The notes under the pieces are model-generated. The model did no database searches, was not told the origin of the DNA, and saw only the letters and a program-made list of their open reading frames with translations. The position numbers and the translations under genes are program-made. From NCBI GenBank assembly GCA_018657525.1, contig JABHWZ010000002.1, forward strand, positions 84,590-148,589: a DNA stretch of 64,000 nt, written 5' to 3'. Shown piece by piece: positions 7,357-57,356 of the stretch. Position 1 is the first letter of the stretch, and the number at the start of each line of letters is the position of its first letter. Origin of the DNA: an archaeon (GTDB lineage: Archaea > Nanobdellota > Nanobdellia > Pacearchaeales > GW2011-AR1).

Positions 7357-7374
7357 TTTAATTGTAGCCCCTTT

Positions 7375-7890: not shown

Positions 7891-7891
7891 T

Positions 7892-9162: not shown

Positions 9163-9163
9163 T

Positions 9164-11338: not shown

Positions 11339-11339
11339 T

Positions 11340-11573: not shown

Positions 11574-11574
11574 T

Positions 11575-11955: not shown

Positions 11956-11956
11956 T

Positions 11957-12313: not shown

Positions 12314-12314
12314 T

Positions 12315-13407: not shown

Positions 13408-13408
13408 T

Positions 13409-14859: not shown

Positions 14860-14860
14860 T

Positions 14861-15262
14861 TTAATAAACCACTGAAGCGATTTTTGCAACTTGCGGCCAT
14901 CGCTCTAGAACCTCCCTTGCAATTGGTCCTTTAATCTGAGTTCCTTTTGGATTGCCTTTTTCATCTTTCAAAATAGCAACTGCATTATCTTCAAATGCCA
15001 CTCGCTCTCCGCTGTTTCTTCTCCATGATTTTTTCTGTCGAATTATTACTGCGTCAAAAACTTTCCCTTTCATGTCAGGCACGCCCTTCCGGATTGAAAC
15101 CTTTACCCAATCTGCAATTTTAGCACTTACCTGTTTAGATTTTTTAGCTTTAGCCTTTTTAACTGAAACAATTTTAACCATCTTCGCCCCACTATTATCT
15201 GCCGCGGGCATAATTGCACCGAGGTTAAAAGCTGAAGTTGTTCGCGCGCTTATTGCTTTCAT
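14861..15262 (-). CDS. rpl14: 50S ribosomal protein uL14
   Basis: ADNSGAKMVKIVSV...VFDAVIIRQKK..RR..G..V.FEDNA is the uL14 pattern. Confidence 0.95.
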   Translation of the reverse strand: MKAISARTTSAFNLGAIMPAADNSGAKMVKIVSVKKAKAKKSKQVSAKIADWVKVSIRKGVPDMKGKVFDAVIIRQKKSWRRNSGERVAFEDNAVAILKDEKGNPKGTQIKGPIAREVLERWPQVAKIASVVY

Positions 15263-15537
15263 TTTACATCCTCCCCTAATAATCCCTCAACTCTTAAATG
15301 ATTCCATGCTCTACTTCTTCTAATTTCTGCACTTTCACATCCTCCAATGCACCCACATCCTATTTGATATTCTCTAATGGTCACTTTTTCTCCATCCGAG
15401 TAAGCAAATATATTTGTTCCACATTGAGGATTTTGGCATCCAAATAAAACTCCTTTTTGCCCACTCACTAAAATATTCTGTGGGACATATGGATTAGATT
15501 CAAACCTGTGAATATCTTGAGGCCTTATTGCTTTCAT
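15259..15537 (-). CDS. hypothetical Cys-rich protein (92 aa) intercalated between rps17 and rpl14
   Basis: ATGA overlaps at both ends. Its first 14 nt are identical to the rpl14 start (MKAI). CQNPQCG...CGCIGGC is a possible metal site. The SD GGGGAGGA for rpl14 sits in its last codons. Confidence 0.65.
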   Translation of the reverse strand: MKAIRPQDIHRFESNPYVPQNILVSGQKGVLFGCQNPQCGTNIFAYSDGEKVTIREYQIGCGCIGGCESAEIRRSRAWNHLRVEGLLGEDVK

Positions 15538-15971
15538 TTTTTCTCTTCTCCAGATTTATCTTCTTTATTCAGTGTTTCACGATGCTCATGTGAAATGGAT
15601 TTAATAAACACAAAATGGATAATCTTACTCAAAGGTCGGCACTCTTGAATCTGAACTAAGTCCCCAATATTTACTGACGCTTCTAAGCATATTGGCAATC
15701 TAGCATGAAGTTTGGTTCTTGATTTAGTATATCTTTCATATTTTCTTACGTAAACTGTTCTTTCAAGTTCAATTACAATTCTTTTTTTAAATTTCTTGGT
15801 AACTGTTCCTTCAAAGATTCGCCCATGAGTTTTTAATTTTCCATGAATATTACAATCTATATCTTTGCATTCTTTCAGAGTCTCTGCTACTTTTGCTCCC
15901 TTCCGTGCTTCGCGATGCCTATGCGCAATGGCGCTTTCTGTTTTTTTCTTTGTCATTTTCTTTTCTGTCAT
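15534..15971 (-). CDS. rps17: 30S ribosomal protein uS17 with terminal extensions
   Basis: GRIFEGTVTKKFKKRIVIELERTVYVRKYERY...IGDLVQIQECRPLSK is uS17. The ATG at 15971 has AGGTGA 13 nt upstream; the alternative ATG at 16040 would overlap sui1 by 11 nt. Confidence 0.85.
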   Translation of the reverse strand: MTEKKMTKKKTESAIAHRHREARKGAKVAETLKECKDIDCNIHGKLKTHGRIFEGTVTKKFKKRIVIELERTVYVRKYERYTKSRTKLHARLPICLEASVNIGDLVQIQECRPLSKIIHFVFIKSISHEHRETLNKEDKSGEEKK

Positions 15972-16029
15972 TTTTGTGTATGTCACCTTTTTTTCCGGGC
16001 CACCTCGAAGAGGTTCTCGTGACCTTTGG

Positions 16030-16332
16030 TTATTCTTCATCTACGGAATCTTCATCAAATCCCATCTTTCCTAAAAGAGGTTTTATTCTCTTTCGATGAT
16101 CTCCTTGGAGTTCAATTCTGCCATCTTTGTAAGTCCCTCCACAAGCTAACTCATTTTTCAGAGCCTTTGCGGTTTTCTTTACATCGACGCTGTTGTCGAA
16201 CCCACTAACCACAGTAACAATCTTTCCGTACCTTTTCTTGTCGGTTGTTACCTTTATTCTTTGTGAACTTTTTACTATCTGCTCACACACACATGCTTGC
16301 TCAGGCAAGCCACATTTTGGACATATTTCCAT
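16030..16332 (-). CDS. sui1: translation initiation factor aIF1 / SUI1
   Basis: CPKCGLPEQACVCE zinc knuckle plus the SUI1 core (KRYGKIVTVVSGF...LKNELACGGTYKDGRIELQGDHR). Confidence 0.9.
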   Translation of the reverse strand: MEICPKCGLPEQACVCEQIVKSSQRIKVTTDKKRYGKIVTVVSGFDNSVDVKKTAKALKNELACGGTYKDGRIELQGDHRKRIKPLLGKMGFDEDSVDEE

Positions 16333-16334
16333 AT

Positions 16335-16520
16335 TTATTGTGTCCCAACTCCAGTTTTATTAGAGGTGAGTATTCTCGCAATTATTTTTCTGATTTCTTT
16401 GTTTTTAGTACTTCCTGTTTTAGTCGAGCTTGACTTTGATTTTATTAATTCCATTTTCAACTCTTTAATCTTTTTTTCCTTATCTTTCTCGCTTAGTTTT
16501 TGTACTTCTTTGAATTTCAT
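16335..16520 (-). CDS. rpl29: 50S ribosomal protein uL29
   Basis: KEVQKLSEKDKEKKIKELKMELIK...IRKIIARILT is the uL29 pattern. Confidence 0.85.
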   Translation of the reverse strand: MKFKEVQKLSEKDKEKKIKELKMELIKSKSSSTKTGSTKNKEIRKIIARILTSNKTGVGTQ

Positions 16521-16690
16521 TTTATTTCTCCTTTCATTTCTTTTTCTAACTTTGCCATTTTTAGTTGATGAGTTTTAAGGCTCTCTTCTAAAACCTTTCT
16601 ACCTCCAGAAACAGGTATTTCTCCTAAATACTTTTGACATGTCGTTATTGCATGTTTACATTGTGTATATTCTTCTTGATGGTCTTTCAT
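16517..16690 (-). CDS. hypothetical protein (57 aa, MKDHQEEYTQCKHAITTCQKYLGEIPVSGGRKVLEESLKTHQLKMAKLEKEMKGEIK) intercalated between rps3 and rpl29
   Basis: Not in the ORF track (under 60 aa). I translated it by hand: 58 codons, with ATGA overlaps to both the rps3 stop and the rpl29 start. The SD AAGGAG for rpl29 sits in its last codons. Confidence 0.55.
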   Translation of the reverse strand: MKDHQEEYTQCKHAITTCQKYLGEIPVSGGRKVLEESLKTHQLKMAKLEKEMKGEIK

Positions 16691-17394
16691 TTCTTTGCCT
16701 CCTCGACTTTTTTAGTTGCTTTCTTTCTTGTGCTCTTCTTTTTCTTAGGTTTTAAACTTACATCTTTTAGTTTCATATTTTCTTTTAACTTATTAATCAT
16801 GGCCTCATCAATAACTACTTTATCTGTCAGTTTTACATAAGGGGATAAAATTGCAACTTTAATTCCTACAACTCCTGGTTTAGTCATCGCAACTGCTTGC
16901 GCCCTATCTACTAACTTTGCACTCTCTCCCGCTTTTTTCAAATATCCCTGAGCAAATCTCCATGTTTTTGCCCTAGTGCTCGGAAGCTTTCCACTCAATT
17001 TAAGTTCTGCACCCAAGGCTCCAGCTTTCATTATTGTCTCCAATGCTCTATAAGCTATAACTTTAAATTTCAAAGGTCCAACTCTTTCCAGACCCAACGC
17101 AATTTCATCCGCCATTAATTGTGCATCAAGCTCAGGCTCAGTTATCTCCTTTATTTCCACATGAGGATTAGCTAATTTGAATTCCTTTTTCAAAAATTCA
17201 GTTAATTCTCCAATTCTCTCACCCTTTCTACCAATAACTAATCCAGGTTTATGCGTCGATACAATAATTTTTTCACCAACCGGAGTGTATTCAATTTCAA
17301 CTTTGCTGGCCTTACCCTTTCCAAGCGATGTTTTAACATATTCTTTAACTGCGAATTCTTCTTTTTTCAAAGCTACTGATTTTCTTTCTTCCAT
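16687..17394 (-). CDS. rps3: 30S ribosomal protein uS3 with a Lys-rich C-terminal tail
   Basis: KH domain (VIGRKGERIGELTEFLKKEF) plus the uS3 C-terminal domain. Confidence 0.95.
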   Translation of the reverse strand: MEERKSVALKKEEFAVKEYVKTSLGKGKASKVEIEYTPVGEKIIVSTHKPGLVIGRKGERIGELTEFLKKEFKLANPHVEIKEITEPELDAQLMADEIALGLERVGPLKFKVIAYRALETIMKAGALGAELKLSGKLPSTRAKTWRFAQGYLKKAGESAKLVDRAQAVAMTKPGVVGIKVAILSPYVKLTDKVVIDEAMINKLKENMKLKDVSLKPKKKKSTRKKATKKVEEAKK

Positions 17395-17395
17395 T

Positions 17396-17965
17396 TTATT
17401 TCTTTGCCCCCTTATTTACTTTCTTTTCTGTTACTACAATTTTAAGATGAGTTCTTTTTCTTTTTATTCGCCCAAATCTTCCAAAAGGTCGAGCCGCTTT
17501 ATTTGCAACAGCCTCGGTGATTATCGGTGCTTCAAGTCCATTAACATTTGCATTGCCTCGTAAACCCTTTAAGATTATAATAAATTCTCCTGATGCTTTT
17601 CCTGGAAATCTGCCTGACATGATTCCTTTACCCTTTCTATGTGGAATTTCCCCAATCATTGGAACTGCTTTTTTCTTCCGTATAACTAATTCCAAATCTT
17701 CCATTGCTTTTTCAATAGTTTTACCTTTAATAAATTTACAAATAAATTTTGCATCCAAAGTTGAAATTGGCACGCTAGTTGAATTAACTTCTGCTTTATC
17801 TCGCTTGACTATTTTTTGTTGAACCGGTTTCTTTGTTTCTTTTTTAACTTCTTCAACTTTCTTATCCTTTTTTATTTCTGTAACTGGAACCCTTGCCCCA
17901 GCTTTTGATTGCTTCTTCATTGTCTTCGAAGTTTTCTGTTCTGGGTTATAATTTTTTTCTGTCAT
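17396..17965 (-). CDS. rpl22: 50S ribosomal protein uL22 with an N-terminal Lys-rich extension
   Basis: AKFICKFIKGKTIEKAMEDLE...GRFPGKASGEFIIILKGLRGNA is the uL22 pattern. Confidence 0.9.
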   Translation of the reverse strand: MTEKNYNPEQKTSKTMKKQSKAGARVPVTEIKKDKKVEEVKKETKKPVQQKIVKRDKAEVNSTSVPISTLDAKFICKFIKGKTIEKAMEDLELVIRKKKAVPMIGEIPHRKGKGIMSGRFPGKASGEFIIILKGLRGNANVNGLEAPIITEAVANKAARPFGRFGRIKRKRTHLKIVVTEKKVNKGAKK

Positions 17966-18020
17966 TGTGTTTTTTGTTCTGCAAAAAATGCAGTTAAAAT
18001 GTTTGCCATTTTGTCTTTAT

Positions 18021-18416
18021 TTAGTGTTTACTTAAAGTTTTTGTCCCCTTTGTAGACCCAACTCCTGCTTTTCCATGGTTAACTCTTCCTCTTGTCGGAG
18101 AGAATTCCCCAAAATAACGTCCAAGCATTTCAATAGTTATATCAGTTGGAATAAATTTATTTCCATTATGAATTTGTATTCTCATTCCAACTAAATCTGG
18201 AACAACAATCAAATCTCTTAAATGAGTTCTGATCTGTTTACCATTTGCTACTTTTTTCTTAGCTCTTGCCACAAAATTTTCTATATCTTGGAAATTTCTC
18301 AAAACCGTTCTCCTTTCTCTCGACTTCAAAAGTTTCGCAAATTCTCTTACATCTAGAGTTTTCAGTTCTTCAATTTTCTTTCCTCGAAATGTTAATTCCT
18401 TTTTTCCTAATACCAT
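18021..18416 (-). CDS. rps19: 30S ribosomal protein uS19
   Basis: IRTHLRDLIVVPDLVGMRIQIHNGNKFIPTDITIEMLGRYFGEFSPTR is uS19. The ATG at 18416 lies 1 nt after the upstream stop; the track start at 18530 runs through the neighbouring ORF. Confidence 0.9.
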   Translation of the reverse strand: MVLGKKELTFRGKKIEELKTLDVREFAKLLKSRERRTVLRNFQDIENFVARAKKKVANGKQIRTHLRDLIVVPDLVGMRIQIHNGNKFIPTDITIEMLGRYFGEFSPTRGRVNHGKAGVGSTKGTKTLSKH

Positions 18417-18417
18417 T

Positions 18418-18669
18418 TTAATCTGTTCCTTGCCTCCAATCCTTAGCTGAGCGATAATTTCCATCATACAAACATTTTTTACATCCTTGATCACTACTAG
18501 AGTATGTGCAATAGTGAGAAATTGCTCCACTAGATTTCATATATGGGGCCCAAGTTTCTTTTCTCCCTTTTTGAGCAGGGCAATCTTTTTCAAATTCTCT
18601 TAACATTCCCATTACTTTTATTGCTTCACTATTATCTTCTTCTGTGCTTGTCGTTGTTTTTTTTACCAT
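18418..18669 (-). CDS. hypothetical Cys-containing protein (83 aa) intercalated between rpl2 and rps19
   Basis: There are 1-nt gaps on both sides. The SD GGAGG for rps19 lies near its 3' end. Confidence 0.6.
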   Translation of the reverse strand: MVKKTTTSTEEDNSEAIKVMGMLREFEKDCPAQKGRKETWAPYMKSSGAISHYCTYSSSDQGCKKCLYDGNYRSAKDWRQGTD

Positions 18670-18670
18670 T

Positions 18671-19381
18671 TTATTTTTTCTTACCTGTTCTTTTCGGCCT
18701 GATTAATCCAACTTTCTGTCCAGGTGCTGAATTTCTTTTTGCAATCCTTGATTTAGGAACCTTTCCTCTTCCCGAACCAAACGGATGATCAATTGCATTC
18801 ATTTTACAAGCAGATGTCCTCGGCCATAATTTATTTTTTGACTTTTTCATGTGATGTTTTTTACCCGCTTTCAATATCGGTTTGTCTAGTCTCCCGTGAC
18901 CTGCAACTACTCCTACAATAGCCCGACATTTTCCATTTAACTTCTTTTCCTTTTTAGAAGGCAGAAGCACATAGATTGAATCTCCCACAATTCTACTTAT
19001 CATTGCAGAACTTCCTGCACTTTTCATAAGCTTCCCACCGTCGCCAGTTCTTGATTCAATGCAATGAATTGGAGTTTTAACCGGGATATCTGCAACCTTC
19101 ATAATGTTCCCATCTTTAACTTCTTTACTTTCAAAATTAATCTTTTGCCCTTCTTGCATTCCCTTAAATGCCGGAACATAAAAATAACTTTTTTTATTTT
19201 CTTTAATATATTCAATTTTTGCTAACGGTGCAGTGTGCGCCTTCGACGCCAATAATTCAACAACAATCCCTTCTCCAGATAATCGCGGCGGATATTGAAT
19301 CTTGTAAATAAACGATTTCTTGTTTACTCTATAAGTTTTACTTCCTTTCCCACGTCTTTGCATAATAATTCTTTTTCCCAT
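18671..19381 (-). CDS. rpl2: 50S ribosomal protein uL2
   Basis: GGKLMKSAGSSA...VAGHGRLDKP..KAG...MNAIDHPFGSGRG is uL2. Confidence 0.95.
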   Translation of the reverse strand: MGKRIIMQRRGKGSKTYRVNKKSFIYKIQYPPRLSGEGIVVELLASKAHTAPLAKIEYIKENKKSYFYVPAFKGMQEGQKINFESKEVKDGNIMKVADIPVKTPIHCIESRTGDGGKLMKSAGSSAMISRIVGDSIYVLLPSKKEKKLNGKCRAIVGVVAGHGRLDKPILKAGKKHHMKKSKNKLWPRTSACKMNAIDHPFGSGRGKVPKSRIAKRNSAPGQKVGLIRPKRTGKKK

Positions 19382-19382
19382 C

Positions 19383-19655
19383 TTACATTAATCTCCTTTG
19401 CTTTATTGTTCTTGGAAATCCATATTCTCTCGCGCCTTGCCTTTTGATATATTTCACGTCTACATATTTCATCTGGCCTTCTACAGTAAATATAATCTCT
19501 CTCCGGAGTGGTGCTAAACAATGTCTTATCGGGCTATTTTGCCTACGCTCTTTTATAACAATTCCCTCTCCTACTTCCGGGATTAATACAAGAGCACCTT
19601 CTTCTTTTGCAGTTCTCATTTCAATAGTTGTCATATTTCCAATATTTTTCTCCAT
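19383..19655 (-). CDS. hypothetical Arg-rich protein (90 aa) intercalated between rpl23 and rpl2
   Basis: TAATG overlap with the rpl23 stop and a 1-nt gap to rpl2. The SD AAGGAG for rpl2 sits in its last codons. Confidence 0.6.
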   Translation of the reverse strand: MEKNIGNMTTIEMRTAKEEGALVLIPEVGEGIVIKERRQNSPIRHCLAPLRREIIFTVEGQMKYVDVKYIKRQGAREYGFPRTIKQRRLM

Positions 19656-19912
19656 TATATAATACCTATTTTAGTCGCCAGGTCAATTGCTGGAAACTCC
19701 TTTTTTAATTTAACGTAAGTGTATTTTTTATTATTTCTAATTGATGTTCTAACCTTTTCAACCTTAACTTCAAATAATTCCTCAACTGTTTTCTTAACTT
19801 CGTCTTTTGAAAATTTCGGACTGACTGTGAAAGTTATAACATTATCTTTTTCAATTAACATAACTGCTTTTTCCGTCGTTATTGGTTTAAGTTGAACTCC
19901 GATTGTTTTCAT
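19655..19912 (-). CDS. rpl23: 50S ribosomal protein uL23
   Basis: KPITTEKAVMLIEKDNVITFTVSPKFSKDEVKKTVEELFEVKVEKVRT is uL23. Confidence 0.9.
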   Translation of the reverse strand: MKTIGVQLKPITTEKAVMLIEKDNVITFTVSPKFSKDEVKKTVEELFEVKVEKVRTSIRNNKKYTYVKLKKEFPAIDLATKIGII

Positions 19913-20157
19913 TTTTTATTTTTCCCTATCTGTAAAAGACTTTTTAATTCTGATGTTCGTTCGAAAACTAAAATATCTGTCCCATGGACTTCCAAGATCC
20001 TAGAATTAAATCGATACCCGCTATCAGTTCCCTTTAATCCAAAACAATGCCAAATTGTATCTTTATATGAGTATTCTTTAAAGTATTCTGCTTCTACAAC
20101 TAAGTTTTCATGTTGAGCATCAATTAAAGTATACATTGAATCAAGACTTAATGTCAT
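19909..20157 (-). CDS. hypothetical protein (82 aa) intercalated between rpl4 and rpl23
   Basis: ATGA overlaps at both ends; no recognisable motif. Confidence 0.6.
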   Translation of the reverse strand: MTLSLDSMYTLIDAQHENLVVEAEYFKEYSYKDTIWHCFGLKGTDSGYRFNSRILEVHGTDILVFERTSELKSLLQIGKNKK

Positions 20158-20975
20158 TTCTTAGCCTCCACTTTTTTAATTCCCTTGAACTTATTATTTA
20201 ATTCTTCAACTGCTTTTTCAGTATAAACTGTTAATCTTCCAAGACCACCATTTGCTAAATTATCCACTCCCAAGTTCCCAGCTTGAACAACATCTATAAT
20301 TGTTGATTTTACTTTTTCGTCTTTACCTAAAACTAAAAGCATACCTGCAGATTTTTTGTACTTTCTTCCTCTTCGTGAACCTCTTCCTGCTCGAACTTTC
20401 TTAGTTTGAAGTGCAATTTCAAATAATGTTTCTCCCAAAATTTTCTTTAAACTATCTTTCAATTCTTTTGCTTTCAAAGAACTTAATTTTGAATCAACAA
20501 TAAACGGAACCTGTTTTTCTAATTTTTCTATTCTTTGATATTTGTGCTGGATATATTCTACATTCGCTGTCGCGCTTAACGCAGATTCTAAAGCTATTTT
20601 CATTTCCTTTTTATTTATTTTTAAAATATTAATCATTGAAGTTGGTTTTGGTGGATGGGCTCTTCGTCCTCCACGAGTATTCGGTGATGTGGCCCCAACC
20701 CAATTAAATTGTGTTCCTCGTCGTGACATTTGTTTTCTTGGAACTCTTGAAGCTCCTCGCCCGTATCCTGATTTCCAAACATGTCTTCTACGAATTAATT
20801 TTCCCGACGCCGACGCTTGAAGTCCTGCCATAGGTGATGGCCCATAAGGTTGCTTTGTTTTCTTAACTTCCAAAACTTTCGCAACAATATCTTCTCGAAC
20901 TTTTTTAGAAAAATAACTAGGACTATCCATTTCCTTTCCTTGCTTTCCGTCTATTTGATATATTTTAATTTTCAT
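20154..20975 (-). CDS. rpl4: 50S ribosomal protein uL4 (L1e)
   Basis: QPYGPSPMAGLQASA...GRGASRVPR...GGRRAHPPK is archaeal uL4. Confidence 0.9.
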   Translation of the reverse strand: MKIKIYQIDGKQGKEMDSPSYFSKKVREDIVAKVLEVKKTKQPYGPSPMAGLQASASGKLIRRRHVWKSGYGRGASRVPRKQMSRRGTQFNWVGATSPNTRGGRRAHPPKPTSMINILKINKKEMKIALESALSATANVEYIQHKYQRIEKLEKQVPFIVDSKLSSLKAKELKDSLKKILGETLFEIALQTKKVRAGRGSRRGRKYKKSAGMLLVLGKDEKVKSTIIDVVQAGNLGVDNLANGGLGRLTVYTEKAVEELNNKFKGIKKVEAKK

Positions 20976-21205
20976 TTTCTTTTAAAATCTTCTTGTTCAA
21001 GATATAAAATATCTCTAGTAACGTGAACTCCTTCACTGCAAGCAATTCCTTTTCCGTCAGAGGCCACACCTAAATAAGCACTTCTTTCCCCCTCTAATTG
21101 GGAAATTACTCCCATGCATTTTTTCATATCCCCATTTATATCAATCTCTGTTTTGTATGCAGGACAAGTTTTTGCACAACTACATAGGATTCCTGCTATT
21201 TTCAT
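20972..21205 (-). CDS. hypothetical Cys-rich protein (77 aa) intercalated between rpl3 and rpl4
   Basis: ATGA overlaps at both ends. Contains a CSCAKTCP...C...C pattern. Confidence 0.6.
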   Translation of the reverse strand: MKIAGILCSCAKTCPAYKTEIDINGDMKKCMGVISQLEGERSAYLGVASDGKGIACSEGVHVTRDILYLEQEDFKRK

Positions 21206-22155
21206 CGCAACGCCACCAGCTCAAAAGCTTTTTTATTTTGTTTTTTAGTCTCTCTCAACGGAGCAGTAATTAATAATTGTCTTTTTGCCGATCCTTGCAC
21301 ACTTCCTGCAACAACTAAATATTCATTATGAACATTTCCATAATTTTTAATATTTGCAATCGGTTTATCATCTGCTTTGGCCAAGTCAATGATTTTATTG
21401 TTGTAAACCACCCTCGTAAACATACCCAGCTGACCAGCCATCGGAGTTCTAAAAGTTACACGAGCCGGATGCCACGGAGCAATTGAACCAACTTTTCTCA
21501 GCCCTTTTTCTGATTTATGAAATCTAAGTTTAATACCAAATCTTTTTACTGGACCTGAAAAACCTTTACCTTTTGTTAAACCTCTAACATCTACCAACTT
21601 TCCTACCTCAAAAATATCTGAAACCGCAATTTCCTTTGTCAAATTTTCTTTAATCCATGCCATTTTTTCAGTGATATCTTGGCCTGTCAATCCAATTTCT
21701 ATTAAATCTGGTGTTTTTTTAATTTCAGTTTTTTTAACTTGAGAATAAGCAATCACCGCAACATCATCATACTCCTCAATTTTAACATCATCTAATTTTG
21801 CTTTATTTTGTTTAGGAATTTTAACTTTCTTTTTTAGTTCTTTATCTAAGTTTTCAGAAAGAATATCTTTCGCCACTTTTTTGTTTTTATAAAATCTTAC
21901 AGAAAAAATCTTTAATGTTGGACACTCGAGAATAGTTACCGGGACAACAATTTCCTTGCCCTTTGTCATTGAATCTTCTGTGCTGTCTTTAACATAAGCC
22001 GAAGCCATTCCAGCTTTATAACAAATGAATCCTTTAAGTCCTTTAGAATTTTCAGATGGAATCGCACTCCAGTTAACTCTAGGCAAAGCTTTTCTGGCTC
22101 GCTTCCGCGGCCAAAATTGCAAACTTCCTCTTCGTGGTCTTGATAATGTTGGCAT
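21202..22155 (-). CDS. rpl3: 50S ribosomal protein uL3
   Basis: RPRRGSLQFWPRKRA...GFICYKAGM...TKGKGFSGPVKRFG is archaeal uL3. Confidence 0.95.
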   Translation of the reverse strand: MPTLSRPRRGSLQFWPRKRARKALPRVNWSAIPSENSKGLKGFICYKAGMASAYVKDSTEDSMTKGKEIVVPVTILECPTLKIFSVRFYKNKKVAKDILSENLDKELKKKVKIPKQNKAKLDDVKIEEYDDVAVIAYSQVKKTEIKKTPDLIEIGLTGQDITEKMAWIKENLTKEIAVSDIFEVGKLVDVRGLTKGKGFSGPVKRFGIKLRFHKSEKGLRKVGSIAPWHPARVTFRTPMAGQLGMFTRVVYNNKIIDLAKADDKPIANIKNYGNVHNEYLVVAGSVQGSAKRQLLITAPLRETKKQNKKAFELVALR

Positions 22156-33979: not shown

Positions 33980-34156
33980 ATGGCAAATCCTTCAAAAGTA
34001 TCTTTTATAATCGGAGCAATAATCCTATTATCCGGATTTTTATTTCAAAGTTCCGCAAGCGCAAATTTAATTGTTCAGATTTATTCTAAATGGATATTTG
34101 CCCTCGGAGGATTATTCATTTTAATCGGGCTTCTAAATTTAGCATTGGGAAAATAA
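33980..34156 (+). CDS. small membrane protein (58 aa, MANPSKVSFIIGAIILLSGF...)
   Basis: Hand-translated and not in the track. Two hydrophobic helices. Confidence 0.35.
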   Translation: MANPSKVSFIIGAIILLSGFLFQSSASANLIVQIYSKWIFALGGLFILIGLLNLALGK

Positions 34157-34201
34157 TCTTTTTAAGAAAGTTATCTGATTTAATAATCTAAATAGAGGGG
34201 A

Positions 34202-34762
34202 TTAAACTTTTTTAATTATTAAAACAAAATCCCTTTTTTTTACAGATTTAATATCCTCAAAGTCTTTTTCTAGAAACCTCTTTATATAAGCATTTTTTTG
34301 CCCAGAACTTTTTTCAAAATTAAGCATGTATATTACTAATTTCTTAAATTTTTTGTTATACTCCCTTAATTGTCTATTTAGTCTATCTCTAATTCTCTTC
34401 ACTCCACCCTCTTTACATAGTTTTATTTCAATGCCAATTTTTTTATAACTCATATCCACTATTCCATTACTTTTCTTAATCTGACTTTTAATCCCCTTTA
34501 ACTTAACTCCCAAAGCTCCAAATAGTATATTTTCAATATCTTTTTCATTTTTCTTTTTGAGCGTGTGAGGACTTAAAACTTCTTTTGGATTAAAAGACAT
34601 TAATATTTTTTTAATCTTTTTAAAATCATTATTTATTCTTGTGCTAGATAGTGAACTTTGTTGGTTTGATTTTTTATTAATTGTCTTTTTCTTAACTTTC
34701 TTTTTTATAGATCTTTTTTTTCTCTTTGGAGCTTCTCCCCAAAAATCTTCAAATAACCCCAT
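34202..34762 (-). CDS. hypothetical protein with a basic N-terminus and a possible PD-(D/E)xK nuclease-like core
   Basis: IVDMSYKKIGIEIKL fits a D...E-x-K spacing. This is weak. Confidence 0.3.
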   Translation of the reverse strand: MGLFEDFWGEAPKRKKRSIKKKVKKKTINKKSNQQSSLSSTRINNDFKKIKKILMSFNPKEVLSPHTLKKKNEKDIENILFGALGVKLKGIKSQIKKSNGIVDMSYKKIGIEIKLCKEGGVKRIRDRLNRQLREYNKKFKKLVIYMLNFEKSSGQKNAYIKRFLEKDFEDIKSVKKRDFVLIIKKV

Positions 34763-34916
34763 TTTATATCTACTATAAAAATCTCTAACTTATAAATTTA
34801 TCCCTCTCCAAATTCATTCTAACTCTCGCTACGCTCGTCTCTTGTTACTTTCTTATTTAGAAGTTCAAACTAATGTGTTTGAGGGTAGATGATATTTGAA
34901 TTAAAATAAATTAAAT

Positions 34917-35222
34917 TTATCCAAATAGAGCACCTAGCCCTTCTGCTGCAGCTTCTTTCTTTTCTTCTTTTGGCTTCTCAGCTTTTGCTTCTCCACCTTC
35001 AGCTCCACCCGCAGGTGCGCTTCCAGCAGCAGGAGCACTAGCAACTAAACTAGCACTTGCTAATTCAGCTTCGATATCCACGTCCTTCAAACTAGCAACA
35101 AGAGACTTGATTTTACTCTCGTCCACGTCGATGCCAGCGGCTGCAACAACACTTTTGATTCCTTCTTCATTAACTTCCTTTCCTGCCTTATGCAGTAAAA
35201 GTGCTGCGTATACGTTTTCCAT
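34917..35222 (-). CDS. rpl12: 50S ribosomal stalk protein P1 (archaeal L12)
   Basis: MENVYAALLLHKAGKEVNEEGIK..., an Ala/Gly hinge, and the C-terminal EKKEAAAEGLGALFG. Confidence 0.9.
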   Translation of the reverse strand: MENVYAALLLHKAGKEVNEEGIKSVVAAAGIDVDESKIKSLVASLKDVDIEAELASASLVASAPAAGSAPAGGAEGGEAKAEKPKEEKKEAAAEGLGALFG

Positions 35223-35237
35223 TTTATTGTTTTCCTC
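35219..35237. repeat. 19-nt perfect direct repeat (CCATTTTATTGTTTTCCTC on the plus strand) spanning the stop/start junction, copy 1
   Basis: Identical to 35430-35448. On the coding strand it reads GAGGAAAACAATAAAATGG, i.e. -GKQ stop, A, ATG G. Confidence 0.9.
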
Positions 35238-35433
35238 TCCCAGAATTTAGTTCTGTTTGAGTTGAATATCTATTACAAATTTGATAATCATTTGGACAAC
35301 TCATTGCCCAGAATCGATCTATTTCACTTGCGCAGGGACTACCATCATATAAAAACGGACACATCTTTCCTTCTTCTTTCAAATTTTCAAGTCTTTGAGT
35401 AATTTCTTCTGACATTATTAAATTTTCTGCCAT
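35224..35433 (-). CDS. hypothetical Cys-rich protein (69 aa) intercalated upstream of rpl12
   Basis: There are 1-nt gaps on both sides when started at the ATG at 35433. Contains a CPF...C...C...C pattern and is flanked by the 19-nt perfect repeat. Confidence 0.6.
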   Translation of the reverse strand: MAENLIMSEEITQRLENLKEEGKMCPFLYDGSPCASEIDRFWAMSCPNDYQICNRYSTQTELNSGRGKQ

Positions 35434-35448
35434 TTTATTGTTTTCCTC
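35430..35448. repeat. 19-nt perfect direct repeat, copy 2
   Basis: See 35219-35237. Confidence 0.9.
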
Positions 35449-35764
35449 CATTTAAATTTGGAGTTTGAACTTGGTAAGCTCTTACCCAAAATTTATTTGA
35501 AAAGTCAACTTCATCCATTCCTTCTGAAATAAGTACTCCTGCTAATAAACCTTCTACAATTCCTTGTCCGTCCGGAGCACATCTTCTCCCTATTTTATTC
35601 CAAGAATTATCTGGATCTCTCCTAACATCACGAAACCGGATGTTTTTACAACCCTGTGAATGATATACCTCTATTTTTACCATTAGAGTCTCTCCAGTAG
35701 ATGGTGCAGGATATTGATAAATTTCATCCAACATCCCTTGTGGGATAGAATCTCTTTCTGTCAT
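35435..35764 (-). CDS. hypothetical protein (109 aa) intercalated downstream of rpl10
   Basis: The ATG at 35764 lies 1 nt after the rpl10 stop; the track start at 35857 overlaps rpl10. Confidence 0.6.
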   Translation of the reverse strand: MTERDSIPQGMLDEIYQYPAPSTGETLMVKIEVYHSQGCKNIRFRDVRRDPDNSWNKIGRRCAPDGQGIVEGLLAGVLISEGMDEVDFSNKFWVRAYQVQTPNLNGGKQ

Positions 35765-35765
35765 T

Positions 35766-36722
35766 TTATCCAAACAGTGCACCAAGACCTTCAGCTGCTG
35801 CTTCTTTCTTGGGCTCCTCCTTTTTTTCTGGTTTTGATTCTTCTGCTGGTGCTTCAACTGCCACTGGCTCTGGTTCCCCAGTCATTATTCTATGAACTTT
35901 AGTTCCATGTGCATTTGCTTTTGCTAACAAGTGAGAAATTGTATCTTTTGAGACATATCCCATAGAAACTGCAAAAGACAATGCCTTCCCATAATCTGCC
36001 TTCAAATTTTCAAGAGCCCCTTCAATATCAATTTTAATTTCTGCATAAAATTTATTCTCTTTAGTATCAAGCGCACTCAAAGGTAAGAACCCAATTGAAA
36101 ACGGTTTAATATCTAACTTACTCATCATCGCCGCTGCCCCCGAAGAAATCTCTTCGCCTTCTTTAACTAAAACTTTATCTTCCTTAATTGCAATTTTCCC
36201 ATCTTTAATCTGAATCTGAATTCCCAAAGCACCCAATTCTGAAATTGCTGGACCTGGAACTAAATCTGTTGGACCTGCTGAAACAATAATGTCCAACGGA
36301 GCAATTTGTCCAACTTTTGCTTTTGCAGGACTTTTGTTTCTTAATAAATCCAGAGATAAATCAAATGCATCACTTTCTGAAAATAATATTGCAACAGCTT
36401 CGCCAATCGAACCCTTTAATTTTTCTCCTTCTTTTGTTTCCGCTTCATCGATCGCTCTAAGAATTAAATTTTTCTTTGGAACTTTTACAACTGCTTGTCC
36501 TCGAAGTTTCTTAACAATTTCTTGAAATTGTGAGCCAGGCAAATTCTTAATTGAAGCAATTAAAACTGTTTTACTCCCACTAACTAAATCCTTTAACTCT
36601 GTAACAGTTTCCAATTTCCACTTTGGTGGATCAGTTCTTGCCGAGCGTTTTTGCGAACCTTTCGCGTCGCCCTTGATGTGAGCGGGAGCGCGAGTTTGAG
36701 CTGGTTTTTTTATTTCTGCCAT
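35766..36722 (-). CDS. rpl10: 50S ribosomal stalk protein uL10 (P0)
   Basis: PKWKLETVTELKDLV...VLIASIKNLPGSQFQEI and the C-terminal KKEAAAEGLGALFG. Confidence 0.9.
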   Translation of the reverse strand: MAEIKKPAQTRAPAHIKGDAKGSQKRSARTDPPKWKLETVTELKDLVSGSKTVLIASIKNLPGSQFQEIVKKLRGQAVVKVPKKNLILRAIDEAETKEGEKLKGSIGEAVAILFSESDAFDLSLDLLRNKSPAKAKVGQIAPLDIIVSAGPTDLVPGPAISELGALGIQIQIKDGKIAIKEDKVLVKEGEEISSGAAAMMSKLDIKPFSIGFLPLSALDTKENKFYAEIKIDIEGALENLKADYGKALSFAVSMGYVSKDTISHLLAKANAHGTKVHRIMTGEPEPVAVEAPAEESKPEKKEEPKKEAAAEGLGALFG

Positions 36723-36723
36723 T

Positions 36724-36972
36724 TTATTCTATCACCTTCCTTTTTAATTTTCCGTTAATTATTTCATATGTTCTGGAAAATTCTTCCTCTGTCCCATAAT
36801 TAGTATAAACTCGACTTCCTTCCTCTCCCCAAATAAAAACATAGTTCTCTTCTATTGATCCAGATAAATTATGAACTATTTGTTTCGCCTCTCTTCCATT
36901 TAAAACTTCTAAAAGTCCTTTTCGTCCATCATCAACTTCTCTTCCAATCCATTGTTTCCAATTATTTTCCAT
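36724..36972 (-). CDS. hypothetical protein (82 aa) intercalated between rpl1 and rpl10
   Basis: There are 1-nt gaps on both sides. Its last codons encode GGAAGGTGAT, the SD for rpl10. Confidence 0.6.
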   Translation of the reverse strand: MENNWKQWIGREVDDGRKGLLEVLNGREAKQIVHNLSGSIEENYVFIWGEEGSRVYTNYGTEEEFSRTYEIINGKLKRKVIE

Positions 36973-36973
36973 T

Positions 36974-37606
36974 TTATCTTATCGAAATTTTCTGCGGTTT
37001 AGTCATTGTGAATTTAACTTCAACATTCTTTACATTTTCTTTTTCTCGCGGTAAATGTTTCAGAACAGTTTTGTAAATTGTATTAATATTCTCAATTATG
37101 TCTTCATCTTTCATACTCTGTTTCCCAATCGCAAGTTTAATACTAGCCTCTTTAACTTTAATTTTTATACTATTACTAATTTTTGCTTTCACTTCATTTA
37201 TTGCTTTATCATCTGCATTTAGAATTATTCCTAACTGGGGAGAAGGCATTTTTCCTGCTGGTCCTAACGCTCTACCAAAGGTTGTTGCAATTTTTGGCAT
37301 TAAACTTCCTTGCGCAAGAAAAAAATCATAACTCTCTACTAATTTTTTTAATTTCTTCTTATCATTATATTTCTTAAATTGCTCTGGAGTAATCGTATCC
37401 ACATTTTTATTGTCTGATTCTAAGAAACCTGCAATTTTTTTCTCTTTTACTTGATGCGGAACATTCACAATAACATTAAGTGTTGTTTTTTTCAAATCAA
37501 CTTTTTGCAAATTTATAATTAAATCAACTGTTTGGTCAAACTTCCGTTCCTTCCCTTTACGTAACTCTTCCAGAGCTTTTTTTAAATCGGTTTTCAAATC
37601 TGCCAT
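36974..37606 (-). CDS. rpl1: 50S ribosomal protein uL1
   Basis: RKFDQTVDLIINLQKVDLKK...LGPAGKMPSPQLG is uL1. Confidence 0.9.
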   Translation of the reverse strand: MADLKTDLKKALEELRKGKERKFDQTVDLIINLQKVDLKKTTLNVIVNVPHQVKEKKIAGFLESDNKNVDTITPEQFKKYNDKKKLKKLVESYDFFLAQGSLMPKIATTFGRALGPAGKMPSPQLGIILNADDKAINEVKAKISNSIKIKVKEASIKLAIGKQSMKDEDIIENINTIYKTVLKHLPREKENVKNVEVKFTMTKPQKISIR

Positions 37607-37720
37607 TTTATTATATGTATCTCCTATATCACGCGTCTCAAACCTAGAGTGTATTTTGAAACGATATAGTCAAGCAATACAAAAACTTTAGATAATTTGA
37701 GTTTATAAATTATTCGGTAG

Positions 37721-38197
37721 TTAATCTGTTACAGGATCACCCATAATATTTGTATGCCCATATTGTTCCAATTCTTTGAGGTTTTGAAGACCAACCAATC
37801 CCATCATACCTATAGAAGTATTACTTATTCTTACCATGCCCAACTTTAATCTTTCATCAATGTCTGAATTGTTCTCTTTTTTTAAGAAAATTTTCTTCAA
37901 CCTTTCATAGTCAGCTTCTGTCAGGTGAATGTCTTCTAAATCTCCTTTCCTTTCTTGTTTTGGAAGTACAACTGCATCAACAAAAACATCTGCCTTTGTG
38001 TTTGTAGGGCAAATAAAATAAATCGCGTCTCCCCGTTTAAAAATTCCCTCATAAATGTCAAACTTTTCTCTTAAACCTCGGACTATTTTCTGACGGTAAT
38101 CAGCATTCAATTTTCCTTTTGCTGATTCATACATTTCAATCCAAGGAGCTTTAAATTCCGCAACACTTACTTCGTTTAACATATCTTTTTGCCACAA
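37721..38197 (-). CDS. hypothetical protein (158 aa)
   Basis: Long ORF with no recognisable motif. Confidence 0.5.
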   Translation of the reverse strand: MWQKDMLNEVSVAEFKAPWIEMYESAKGKLNADYRQKIVRGLREKFDIYEGIFKRGDAIYFICPTNTKADVFVDAVVLPKQERKGDLEDIHLTEADYERLKKIFLKKENNSDIDERLKLGMVRISNTSIGMMGLVGLQNLKELEQYGHTNIMGDPVTD

Positions 38198-38283
38198 TTT
38201 TACTTTATATTCTTTATGGTTTTCGAATATATTATGTTTTCTAGAATATAAAACATTAAAAAGAAATCTATCTCTCTTATTTC

Positions 38284-38634
38284 ATGGAATTAATTTGTTT
38301 ACTATCTTCAGGCAAGGGAACATGGGCGCAGGTTTCTGGTTTAATGAAGCATGGCGAATGGGAAAAAATAATTTTAATCGGTGACGATTTTGCAAAAGAT
38401 TTCAAACACGAAAAAGAATTCGAATTTATTAAAATTGATTTAAGTCAAAGAATTAAAGATTTGAAAGAAGATTTATCTCAAAAATTAAAGGGCAAAATTC
38501 ACGGACTTGAAGTCGCACTCACGCTAGCTTCTGGCGACGGAAAAGAACATATGGCATTACTTTCTGCATTAATCAATTTGCCAGTCGGAGTTAGATTCGC
38601 AGCTCTAACAAAAGAGGGAGTAATTGATTTATAG
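38284..38634 (+). CDS. hypothetical protein (116 aa)
   Basis: ORF of possible small Rossmann-like alpha/beta type. No firm motif. Confidence 0.5.
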   Translation: MELICLLSSGKGTWAQVSGLMKHGEWEKIILIGDDFAKDFKHEKEFEFIKIDLSQRIKDLKEDLSQKLKGKIHGLEVALTLASGDGKEHMALLSALINLPVGVRFAALTKEGVIDL

Positions 38635-47946: not shown

Positions 47947-48399
47947 ATGATTTTCATTATAAAAGTAACAACAAACAAAGAAGAACGATCCGTCGACATG
48001 ATTGCTGAGAAAGCTCAGAAAAAAAATCTAAATGTTTTTTCAGTTTCAAGACCTTTCGGACTTCGAGGATACATCTTACTAGAAGCTGAGGACAGAGATT
48101 CTGCAGAAGAATCAGTTTTTAATTTACCTTATGTAAAGGGAATAATTGGGAAAACAATTCCTTATGAAGAAATTCAAAACATGGTTGAACCATCAGCGAC
48201 GACAATTTCAATTCAAGAAGGTGACATCGTTGAAATTATTGGAGCAACTCTAAAAGGCGAAAAAGCCAAAGTTACAAGAATCGACAAACAAAAAGAAGAA
48301 GTCGTTGTAAATTTATTAGGAGCAGTAGTTCCATTACCAGTCTCAATTAAATTGGATAGCGTAAAGGTTATAAGGCGTGAATCTGAGGAAGAAGAGTAA
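47947..48399 (+). CDS. spt5: transcription elongation factor Spt5 (archaeal NusG)
   Basis: NGN domain (IFIIKVTTNKEERSV...GYILLEAEDRD) plus a KOW motif (EGDIVEIIGATLKGEKAKVTRID). ATG at 47947. Confidence 0.85.
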   Translation: MIFIIKVTTNKEERSVDMIAEKAQKKNLNVFSVSRPFGLRGYILLEAEDRDSAEESVFNLPYVKGIIGKTIPYEEIQNMVEPSATTISIQEGDIVEIIGATLKGEKAKVTRIDKQKEEVVVNLLGAVVPLPVSIKLDSVKVIRRESEEEE

Positions 48400-48833
48400 T
48401 GGAAATAAAAGATTTATTAGAATTAGGGAGGGGAAAAATTAGAGACTTTAAAAGCAAAGTTATGCCTAAAGGATATTTTGAAGAATCTGTTAGGGTTTGT
48501 TTAAATTTAAAAGGAAAAGACCCCGCTTCAGATAAATTTGCAGAAGCATTCGAAGAATTTTGGTTATTCAATATTAGACAAGCTACCTATCAAGAAACGC
48601 TTCATGATAGAATGAAAGCAATTGTTGAATCTAGTAGGAATGTCGAGGGGGGGAAAGATCTCGTTGAGTATCTTGGACGAACCTCTTTAGAGTTTAGAGC
48701 AAGGTCAGACGCAATCACCCAAGTAAGAACTAATTATAGACTTTGGAGAGAAGGTCAACAAGATTATTCTGTTTTTGAAGATTCTTTAAGAGGAGCATTA
48801 ACTTTAAATAAACAAATCGGAGTAACTCAATAA
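48399..48833 (+). CDS. hypothetical protein (144 aa) intercalated between spt5 and rpl11
   Basis: TAATG overlaps at both ends. Its first 4 codons (MEIK) and 14 nt are identical to the rpl11 start. Confidence 0.65.
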   Translation: MEIKDLLELGRGKIRDFKSKVMPKGYFEESVRVCLNLKGKDPASDKFAEAFEEFWLFNIRQATYQETLHDRMKAIVESSRNVEGGKDLVEYLGRTSLEFRARSDAITQVRTNYRLWREGQQDYSVFEDSLRGALTLNKQIGVTQ

Positions 48834-55919: not shown

Positions 55920-56285
55920 ATGGCATTTTTTCTACCTAAATGTATTCCTGATTATCGATTTTCAGATAAGTGGGTTCAATATTTACCTTTAATTGGAATT
56001 CCTGCAGAACTAAGGGGAAGGAGGAAAAAGAGAAATAGAATTGCAACTGATGTACAATCAGTTTCAGGAATTGCTGGGATGTTTGGAGCAGTATTGCTAT
56101 TGACTTCTTCTTTAAAAATGCCACAGACAAATCAACAATACAATCAAGCAATCACAGAAGGTTTACCTCCTGCAACTTATGAGGAAGTTCAATCTATCTC
56201 TCGAGAAAGATGGGTAAGAAAACTTGACGAATCAGATTATACTGCAGATGAAATTAGAGAATTCGTTAAAGGAGAAAGAGATTAA
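55920..56285 (+). CDS. small single-TM protein, paralog 1 of a tandem triplet (121 aa)
   Basis: Shares the C-terminal block NQQYNQ..EGLPPATYEEVQSISRERWVRKL.ESDYTADEIRE with the next two genes. It starts 1 nt after the surface-protein gene. Confidence 0.65.
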   Translation: MAFFLPKCIPDYRFSDKWVQYLPLIGIPAELRGRRKKRNRIATDVQSVSGIAGMFGAVLLLTSSLKMPQTNQQYNQAITEGLPPATYEEVQSISRERWVRKLDESDYTADEIREFVKGERD

Positions 56286-56286
56286 A

Positions 56287-56661
56287 ATGAAATCACTCCA
56301 TAATTTTATAACAAAAAAATTTCCAGATGAATGGGCACAATTGGTCCCAATTTATGGGATTCCAGCAGCGACTAGGGTTGGTGATTCATTGACTGTGAAA
56401 AGTGTTCTTACCTCAGTAATCCAATTGGCTTCAGTAGTTACAGGGGTTATTGGTTTAACTTTAACTAGTTTTGCGATTAATGATATGCCTAAGACAAATC
56501 AACAATACAATCAACTCCTCCAAGAAGGTTTACCTCCCGCTCCTTACGAACAAGTCCAATCTATCTCTCGAGAAAGATGGGTAAGAAAACTTAATGAATC
56601 AGATTATACAACTGAAGAAATTAGAGAACTAGTTAGAGGCAAATATGGAGAAAAGGAATAA
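56287..56661 (+). CDS. small single-TM protein, paralog 2 (124 aa)
   Basis: ATG at 56287, 1 nt after the paralog 1 stop. The N-terminal FPDEWAQLVPIYGIPAA block is shared with paralog 3. Confidence 0.65.
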   Translation: MKSLHNFITKKFPDEWAQLVPIYGIPAATRVGDSLTVKSVLTSVIQLASVVTGVIGLTLTSFAINDMPKTNQQYNQLLQEGLPPAPYEQVQSISRERWVRKLNESDYTTEEIRELVRGKYGEKE

Positions 56662-56662
56662 A

Positions 56663-57028
56663 ATGAAATTATACAATTTTCTAACAAAAAAAGTTCCAGA
56701 TGAATGGGCACAATTGGTCCCAATTTATGGGATTCCAGCAGCGAATAAGGTTGGTAGTGCATTGACTGTGAAAAGTGTTCTTGCCCCAGTAATCCAAATT
56801 TGTTCAGTAGTTACAGGGGTTATTGGTTTAAGTTTAATGTTAACTGGTTTTGTGCTTAATGATAGACCTAAAGATAATCAAAGATATAATCAACTTTTGA
56901 ATGAAGGTTTACCTCCTGCAACTTATGAAGAAGTTCAATCTATCTCTCGAGAAAGATGGTTAAAAAAACTTAACGAATCAGATTATTCCGCAGATGAAAT
57001 TAGAGAACTAGTTAGAGAAAGAGATTAA
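56663..57028 (+). CDS. small single-TM protein, paralog 3 (121 aa)
   Basis: ATG at 56663, 1 nt after the paralog 2 stop. Confidence 0.65.
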   Translation: MKLYNFLTKKVPDEWAQLVPIYGIPAANKVGSALTVKSVLAPVIQICSVVTGVIGLSLMLTGFVLNDRPKDNQRYNQLLNEGLPPATYEEVQSISRERWLKKLNESDYSADEIRELVRERD

Positions 57029-57029
57029 A

Positions 57030-57356
57030 ATGACATTATATAAATCTTTAAAAAACACAGGAAGAGCATTGGCCTTAAGTGGATTAATTACTTTGGCTGG
57101 TTGCAGTAAACCAGAAACTCCTGAAGAAGAACCAGACAGATTAACTCGAACTTTGGAAGTTGGAAAGAAAACTTTTAAAGGAGTAAGTTATAATGGGCTG
57201 ACACGAGATAATACCTTTTCAGTGAGTGAGAACACACATAATACTACTATCTTTCTTCCAAGAGATACAAATAATTTTCAATACAGGCACCAAAAATTTA
57301 AAGTTTTAAAATTAACCCCCAAATCAATAACTTTAAGATTAATAGAACCTTACTAA
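57030..57356 (+). CDS. putative lipoprotein (108 aa)
   Basis: Signal sequence ending in the lipobox-like LAGC; 1-nt gap after paralog 3. Confidence 0.5.
   Translation: MTLYKSLKNTGRALALSGLITLAGCSKPETPEEEPDRLTRTLEVGKKTFKGVSYNGLTRDNTFSVSENTHNTTIFLPRDTNNFQYRHQKFKVLKLTPKSITLRLIEPY

Follow-up and report, generated by a model that had tools for sequence, protein, structure and literature searches.

The described process that comes nearest to the arrangement reported here is orphan-gene accretion in native operons. Orphan genes (ORFans), which have no homologues beyond close relatives, come to lie within or 3' of native operons, as in sdhCDAB-b0725-sucABCD of E. coli, and make use of the native promoter; the operon location of such a gene says little on its function (Price, Arkin & Alm 2006, 'The Life-Cycle of Operons', PMC1480536). 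The locus under study is the operon encoding the ribosomal proteins L1, L10 (P0) and L12 (P1), the stalk operon, in a stretch of 64,000 nucleotides of the archaeal contig JABHWZ010000002.1 (positions 84,590 to 148,589; hereafter the window). Three additional open reading frames (ORFs), o82, o109 and o69, lie between its cistrons. With moderate confidence, we read them as real lineage-specific orphan genes, inserted at the cistron boundaries and translationally coupled to their neighbours, that would be accessory hitchhikers and not components of the ribosome.

The resemblance to ORFan accretion (PMC1480536) lies in the lack of homologues outside close relatives, with a single distant homologue found for o109, in the common strand and operon-like spacing with the native genes, and in the arrangement being missing in relatives. 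Unlike the cases in PMC1480536, the hosts here are the most conserved operons known, and the inserts are extremely dense, three of them in an operon of three genes and no fewer than 15 across the window. Each junction has been reconstituted as a stop-start pair competent for coupling, in several cases with duplicated junction sequence, and the organism is an uncultured, genome-reduced and Woesearchaeota-like DPANN archaeon. The density of the inserts, the conservation of their hosts and the junction-preserving anatomy are what is new, and full-text searches of the literature returned no account of archaeal ribosomal operons with orphan genes between their cistrons.

Other known systems share part of this picture. 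Phage morons are extra genes lodged between two genes that are neighbours in related phages, typically equipped with their own promoter and terminator and residing in phage genomes. The additional ORFs of the stalk operon (the extras) resemble them in being inserted between genes adjacent in relatives, in the unrelated occupants of equivalent slots and in the accessory function proposed, but the 1-nucleotide (nt) gaps leave no room for a promoter or a terminator, the host is a cellular ribosomal operon and no PHROG match was obtained. Free-standing homing endonuclease genes also occur between conserved genes, as do the T4-type seg and mob genes and archaeal LAGLIDADG genes. In common with them, the extras are intergenic insertions in conserved, highly expressed arrays, and the L10/L12 slot of one relative holds a LAGLIDADG_3 ORF; the window extras, in contrast, carry no nuclease motif and are below known endonuclease size. 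Unlike integron cassettes, the region 34700-37800 contains no attC-type inverted repeats and the gene table of the neighbourhood no integrase. With respect to archaeal stalk and L1 proteins, the extras show no match to Ribosomal_L1, Ribosomal_L10/RL10P_insert or Ribosomal_60s and no conserved position in relatives. Finally, the genes of described termination-reinitiation pairs are, as here, on the same strand with a spacing of -4 to +1 nt (Huber et al. 2019, PMC6728339; 2023, PMC10666635). The commonest coupled spacings given there are -4 and -1 nt (ATGA, TGATG), whereas in the stalk operon +1 (TAAAATG) dominates, a spacing from which coupling is proposed.

The stalk operon and its additional ORFs

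The operon consists of six abutting ORFs that run on the minus strand from 37606 to 34917 in the order L1, o82, L10/P0, o109, o69, L12/P1 (lengths in amino acids, aa):

37607-37720, minus strand: non-coding leader and putative promoter region of the operon, with a TATA-like A/T-rich TTTATAAA and GGAG ahead of the L1 start
36974-37606, minus strand: rpl1 (uL1), 210 aa, first gene of the operon (Pfam Ribosomal_L1, E=1.9e-31)
36724-36972, minus strand: o82, 82-aa orphan ORF between L1 and L10
35766-36722, minus strand: rpl10 (uL10/P0), 318 aa (Pfam Ribosomal_L10, E=6e-16; RL10P_insert, E=4e-18)
35435-35764, minus strand: o109, 109-aa orphan ORF immediately 3' of L10
35224-35433, minus strand: o69, 69-aa ORF immediately 5' of L12, with four Cys (C-x9-C-x10-C-x7-C)
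34917-35222, minus strand: rpl12 (P1), 101 aa, last gene of the operon (Pfam Ribosomal_60s, E=1.4e-11)

The three native genes are recognised by their Pfam profiles. The L1 match covers positions 1-197 of the 198 in the profile, and this protein is 65-75% identical to L1 of the Woesearchaeota relatives; the translation of L10/P0 ends in the canonical acidic C-terminal peptide ...EAAAEGLGALFG. The putative promoter was called from reading the sequence of the leader, which also matches loosely the pattern ACTC...GGAG...TAAAATGG, and a T-rich tract is found 3' of rpl12.

The positions and lengths of the three extras, as well as a gap of 1 nt at every junction, had been given in a preliminary description made from the sequence alone. 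Both were reproduced exactly from the ORF list, the five internal junctions (5/5) being TAAAATG (TAA stop, one A, ATG). The longer alternative starts it mentioned also exist: a TTG at 35857 would make o109 overlap L10 by 92 nt, and an ATG at 35451 produces a 75-aa form of o69 (P0006) that is called by some pipelines. The ATG at 35433, with GGAGG placed 9 nt upstream, appears the likelier o69 start.

The same neighbourhood was present in 24/24 contigs read with this exact L10, which is indexed in 48 blocks of the collection, and each extra protein has four NCBI protein accessions, all identical, with cluster members that differ solely in the called start. Because of this agreement the locus is not a misassembly, and the arrangement can be taken as fixed in the population. 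The chance that the required frame is open in the three gaps is about 3.6e-3, 5.6e-4 and 8.7e-3, with a joint value of 1.7e-8.

The coding character of the extras was evaluated with a codon model trained on the long non-ribosomal genes of the window, with random sequence, stop-free and matched in dinucleotide content, as the null. The annotated frame was the top of six in o82 (+0.29 bits per codon, z=2.9), o109 (+0.28 bits per codon, z=3.4) and o69 (+0.23 bits per codon, z=2.2, a score attained by 1% of the null). These values (+0.23 to +0.29) lie around the mean of the other small genes (0.27 bits per codon) and are attained by at most 1% of the null. The GC content of the three ORFs declines from codon position 1 to 2 to 3, and no RNA family was found in an Rfam scan of 34000-38500. 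On these grounds (codon scores, GC pattern and no Rfam match) the extras behave as resident protein-coding sequence, and not as stop-free spacers. Their predicted products are acidic and soluble, with isoelectric points (pI) of 5.2 (o82), 5.3 (o109) and 4.6 (o69); single-sequence AlphaFold2 monomers were of low confidence (pLDDT, the predicted local distance difference test, of 46 for o109 and 51 for o82), too low for fold comparisons to carry meaning.

Two further features of the native genes were seen. The first ~30 codons of L10 (36620-36700, minus strand) encode a GC-rich N-terminal extension (~55% GC vs 33% in the genome) that the relatives do not have, and RNA structure in this 5' segment was not significant (z=-1.0). 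The 3' ends of L12 (34916-34961) and L10 (35765-35810) form a 46-nt repeat of 87% identity that encodes their common acidic C-terminal peptide KKEAAAEGLGALFG, and gene conversion between the P0 and P1 tails may account for it.

Relatives, homologues and other interleaved ORFs

A total of 38 loci with a related L10 were retrieved. The L10 of the window is at most 65% identical to any other one retrieved, and the nearest ones are labelled Candidatus Woesearchaeota, Nanoarchaeota and Pacearchaeota. The operon was said in the preliminary description to be normally contiguous in archaea, and this holds: L1-L10-L12 are contiguous in the outgroups (Methanosarcinales, Thermoplasmata), and among the Woesearchaeota-like relatives the junction is empty in 28/29 cases for L1/L10 and in 17/24 for L10/L12. 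The extras are not standard stalk-operon genes, an identity that would have overturned the initial proposal, as neither a tblastn match in the 38 related loci nor a family match was obtained.

Where the slots of relatives are filled, the occupants differ. A 96-aa ORF sits in the L1/L10 slot of locus L003, and the L10/L12 slot is occupied in 7 of the 24, by ORFs of 132 aa (L009), 70 aa (L011, identical to L029), 105 aa (L013), 78 aa (L022) and 101 aa (L025), and in L023 (1044-2314) by a 54-aa Cys-rich ORF together with a 369-aa protein with LAGLIDADG_3 and helix-turn-helix (HTH) domains (Pfam E=4e-9). The gene for the latter has the appearance of a homing-endonuclease-like gene that stands free within a ribosomal operon. 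No similarity was detected among the slot ORFs of the relatives or between them and the window extras. Since the slots of relatives are mostly empty or carry unrelated ORFs, they can be regarded as insertion hot spots with rapid turnover, and the three ORFs of the window as derived. The L10 of the relatives itself ranges from 269 to 373 aa, and in ten of them (L002, L004, L007, L008, L010, L012, L019, L020, L024 and L027) L10/P0 is without the conserved C-terminal factor-binding peptide and ends in a variable tail (...TPEINSGEEK) that runs through the sequence element ahead of L12 described below.

Searches of Pfam, PHROG, NCBIfam, PADLOC and PDB sequences gave no match for o82, o109 or o69, nor did Pfam and NCBIfam even at E<=1, and a word-indexed search of 5.8e9 proteins retrieved for each of them its own cluster only. 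All-against-all BLASTP of the extras of the window and of relatives revealed no paralogy, and the extras were also unlike any other ORF of the window. A ZZ zinc-finger hit of o69 was not significant (E=1.2). Viral contigs contained nothing related to o82 or the o109 family, and the one match of o69 among them (L041) proved to be a chance run of 8 residues, YSTQTELN, in a phage protein of 346 aa. No LAGLIDADG profile of Pfam matched the extras, and a LAGxxxxEG-like string in the C-terminal third of o109 is not conserved in the homologue that follows.

A full HMMER pass of o109 over 1.84e9 representatives yielded one convincing full-length homologue, P0012 (103 aa, library-wide E=2e-5), with a pairwise BLASTP E=1e-13, 34-37% identity and conservation of Trp, Gly, Pro and aromatic positions. 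Three more candidates (P0010, P0011 and P0013) were discarded as repeat-inflated, being long repeat proteins in which short segments matched many times. P0012 is encoded on a 648-bp ENA contig of another organism, where its 5' neighbour is the 3' end of pheS (Pfam tRNA-synt_2d, E=2.7e-18) and its 3' neighbour is an ORF whose first 32 residues resemble the N-terminus of archaeal PheT and which we take to be pheT. Both junctions are tight (TGATG and TAAAATG). The o109 family, the sole traceable one, thus appears to sit between cistrons in two organisms, each time in a different translation operon, the pheT end being presumptive.

The phenomenon is not confined to the stalk operon. The L3-L15 cluster of the window (22155-7375, minus strand) had been proposed to show the same interleaving, and the Pfam map bears this out, with every expected ribosomal gene and SUI1 present plus 11 further no-family ORFs of 57-118 aa between ribosomal protein genes. 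Their annotated frame was the top of six in 11/11, and 9/11 beat the stop-free null at the 2.5% level or better; the ORFs at 19383-19655 and 11340-11573 were not above it. A further predicted orphan of 144 aa separates Spt5 from L11, normally adjacent genes, so that the interleaved orphan ORFs of the window number at least 15:

20972-21205, 19909-20157, 19383-19655, 18418-18669, 16517-16690 and 15259-15537, minus strand: no-family ORFs of the L3-L15 cluster
14060-14407, 12542-12880, 11957-12313, 11340-11573 and 9661-9981, minus strand: remaining no-family ORFs of the same cluster
47947-48399, plus strand: Spt5/NusG
48399-48833, plus strand: 144-aa ORF with no Pfam match, between Spt5 and L11
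48833-49531, plus strand: L11, with a C-terminal extension of ~90 aa

Several of the interleaved ORFs in the L3-L15 cluster are Cys-rich. Past L15, the cluster region (5290-22155, minus strand) has 488-aa and 199-aa ORFs with no Pfam match in the usual place of secY and adk, and a SecY-like ORF (3417-4865) is found on the strand opposite to the cluster. L11 lies ~10 kb from L1-L10-L12, on the opposite strand.

Junction sequences and the element ahead of L12

Six copies of TAAAATG (the five junctions and the L1 start), all at ORF boundaries, are contained in the 2.7 kb of one strand that make up the operon, where about 0.75 are expected from the shuffle rate (35.7 per 128 kb of strand); window-wide there are 60 vs 35.7 +/- 5.4 in shuffles. 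The same heptamer joins native neighbours, for example L14/L24 and L30/L15, and precedes L1, which has no upstream cistron. For this reason TAAAATG has to be considered the general start and junction context of the genome, and not a scar of the extras. The regular 1-nt packing on which the preliminary description relied is therefore real at all five junctions of the operon but not peculiar to the extras.

Every TAAAATG junction sets the downstream ORF in the +1 frame. The starts at 37606, 36722, 35433, 13407 and 9162 (minus strand), which belong to the unrelated genes L1, L10, o69, L5 and S5, have a common extended context AATAAAATGGCAGA (Met-Ala-Asp/Glu), suggesting that initiation strongly favours this context; between L5 and L10 the identity extends over 18 nt, reflecting a common ATGGCAGA start context. 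Elsewhere in the window (55920-57356, plus strand), 3' of a 650-aa Ig/CARDB-like surface protein, a TAAAATG-joined array comprises three paralogous ORFs of ~121-127 aa (50-75% identical) and a 108-aa ORF with a lipoprotein-like N-terminus.

A closer look at the o69 boundaries revealed a perfect 19-nt direct repeat, GAGGAAAACAATAAAATGG, that flanks this ORF (35219-35237 and 35430-35448) and includes its initial ATGG and its last four codons. The repeat ahead of o69 is recognisable as a second copy of an element that is conserved in the clade upstream of L12:

35219-35262, minus strand: pre-L12 element, copy 1, ACTCAAACAGAACTAAATTCTGGGAGAGGAAAACAATAAAATGG; predicted hairpin including the Shine-Dalgarno sequence, followed by TAA-A-ATG; contains the last codons of o69
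35430-35464, minus strand: pre-L12 element, copy 2, ACTCCAAATTTAAATGGAGGAAAACAATAAAATGG; contains the last codons of o109 and precedes o69

Over ~40 nt this element is conserved in relatives as ...ACTCC - variable - TAAATTC - GGAG(G) - AAAA - TAA(A)ATGG, and it is kept whether it codes for the C-terminus of L10, for that of an inserted ORF, or is non-coding spacer. In 17/22 sequences folded singly it is predicted to form a hairpin (z of -1.8 or below) that pairs the ribosome-binding-site GGAG with CUCC and whose inner stem varies yet stays paired (UGAA/UUCA, AUCAGA/UCUGAU, UCAAA/UUUGA, CAGAA/UUCUG). The hairpins are out of register, and RNAalifold on a MAFFT alignment of the pre-L12 regions gave no consensus structure; the prediction is accordingly that of single-sequence folds and their controls. 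The start regions of L12 and o69 are the two most structured of the 113 in the window (z=-3.3 and -3.0, vs a mean of -0.06). A loose pattern of the element, run over 563 kb, was found at 16/24 L12 starts and at four other sites: the L12 start of L006, which is truncated, both copies in the window and the leader of L1. The hairpin may act in the translational control of P1.

A diverged tandem copy of the 3' half of o109 is not what o69 represents, since the two show no similarity outside the terminal element (DNA p=0.26, protein p=0.24 vs shuffles). Three other extras, all in the L3-L15 cluster, also lie between repeats, of 17, 16 and 13 nt; in a recount with fixed windows, the one around the 9661-9981 extra measured 13 and not 16. 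The first four codons of one extra of that cluster are common with those of the downstream L14, and the last five of another with those of the upstream L19e. The same recount gave shared runs of at least 13 nt in 4/14 flanking junction pairs vs 8/847 non-flanking pairs. The shorter flanking repeats should be treated with caution.

Proposed origin and role of the additional ORFs

From this anatomy we infer that the extras were inserted after the lineage had split from its known relatives, exactly at the L1-L10-L12 cistron boundaries, by an event that duplicated the junction. With 1-nt gaps, and with neither promoter, terminator nor spacer of their own, they would be transcribed on the stalk-operon mRNA, and each would probably be translated by the ribosome that has just terminated upstream, through termination-reinitiation at UAAAAUG. 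No Shine-Dalgarno sequence is found upstream of o82 (after L1) and o109 (after L10), both of which follow a ribosomal gene with a constrained C-terminus, and both should depend on reinitiation by the terminating ribosome. The 3' ends of the inserts supply in turn the Shine-Dalgarno sequence of the next gene, GGTGAT at the end of o82 for L10 and the GGAGG element for o69 and L12. By duplication of the junction, o69 would have captured the initiation region of L12 and would probably be made at L12-like rates. In experiments with Haloferax volcanii and E. coli, such coupling requires overlaps or very short distances (PMC6728339; PMC10666635), so that only insertions restoring an abutting stop-start junction would survive in an essential operon.

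Several points weigh against this reading. The location in translation operons, that of the o109 homologue included, is equally compatible with a translation-related function, and the homologue itself is known from a single 648-bp contig. A run of 18 nt is common to the starts of the unrelated genes L5 and L10, so the repeats owe some of their signal to a shared start context. Strict coupling through the hairpin is not universal, since the hairpin lies in untranslated spacer in L003, L005 and L018. For o82 and o69, which are without any homologue, the case for a protein is made by codon statistics. All population copies are identical, which leaves no variants for a ratio of non-synonymous to synonymous substitution rates (dN/dS).

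The extras could instead be new lineage-specific ribosome-associated proteins, partners of the stalk or the L1 protuberance or acidic chaperones for their basic neighbours, for which adjacency would give a matched co-translational supply. Their strictly co-cistronic and tightly coupled arrangement with ribosomal protein genes, repeated at about 12 further translation-operon junctions, would be expected from such partners, as would the likewise translation-operon (pheS/pheT) location of the o109 homologue. Their acidity (pI 4.6-5.3) has a parallel in the dedicated ribosomal-protein chaperones of eukaryotes, which are acidic too. Tightly spaced gene pairs are moreover enriched for complex subunits (PMC10666635). 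We nevertheless consider a role of this kind unlikely, since the extras are not conserved even in the nearest relatives, with which ribosomal protein identity is 55-75%, slots that are filled in relatives carry unrelated ORFs, including a LAGLIDADG-domain gene, the o109 family has no fixed partner, being placed beside L10 in one organism and beside PheS in another, and no similarity to any ribosomal protein family exists. The absence in relatives, the unrelated slot occupants and the pheS/pheT place of the o109 relative also disfavour a core ribosomal role and speak for accessory or hitchhiking genes. Binding to the P0/P1 stalk or to the L1 protuberance, in particular, is not supported: the predicted products are acidic and absent in relatives, and the homologue stands in a pheS-pheT context.

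A functionless peptide is the prediction if the extras are bridge ORFs, that is, filler DNA kept stop-free so that ribosomes reach and reinitiate on the essential downstream gene. The start and stop of the inserts are indeed borrowed from the duplicated junction, as the o69 ATGG and last four codons in the 19-nt repeat illustrate, o82 and o69 have no homologues and the AlphaFold confidence is low; besides, even short untranslated gaps abolish coupling (PMC10666635), and only open insertions could then survive. The codon usage, however, matches that of ordinary genes and scores far higher than random sequence without stops, the proteins look globular and complex in sequence, and o109 keeps 34-37% full-length identity, with conserved W, G, P and aromatics, to a free-standing ORF of similar length elsewhere, which makes mere filler rather improbable. 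Autonomous selfish elements, either miniature homing-endonuclease-like or addiction genes targeting the stop-start junctions of highly expressed operons, would fit the LAGLIDADG-domain gene in the L10/L12 slot of L023, the high turnover of slots with unrelated occupants, the o109 family in two different operons and the repeats, similar to target-site duplications, that flank several extras. They are quite improbable given that no nuclease, integrase or transposase motif is present in any of 14 extras, that the repeats differ in length (7 to 19 nt), unlike duplications made by transposases, that terminal inverted repeats and copies elsewhere in the window are missing, and that the 24 contigs read show no presence/absence polymorphism. 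The extras also reach only 57-118 aa, and known LAGLIDADG and GIY-YIG enzymes are larger. As for an artefact (misassembly, gene-calling noise, shadow ORFs or hidden RNA genes), chance stop-free runs do occur, up to 110 codons antisense to the operon, but the agreement of all contigs, the top-ranked annotated frames, the empty Rfam scan and the exact filling of the gaps from ATG to stop, with its minute joint probability, make it scarcely credible.

A tentative and rather doubtful extension to the DPANN archaea can be drawn. An unrecognised class of intercistronic hitchhiker genes that lack promoters may exist there, colonising translation operons of high expression (ribosomal protein operons, pheST, spt5-L11) at their stop-start junctions, duplicating the junction in a way that preserves coupling, turning over fast and moving between operons and lineages; in the present genome they would fill roughly every second ribosomal-operon junction.

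Ribosomal protein operons are the textbook example of frozen gene order. Here that order is intact, yet an orphan gene is found at roughly every second ribosomal-operon junction. Annotation based on synteny would mislabel such extras as ribosomal, and marker-gene pipelines that assume contiguous blocks of ribosomal proteins would meet unexpected spacing in these lineages. If made at the levels of ribosomal proteins, the extras would rank with the cell's most abundant proteins and yet be wholly uncharacterised, and they may turn out to be new partners of the ribosome, a new kind of selfish hitchhiker, or a case of orphan gene birth or capture that essential operons accept when coupling is preserved.

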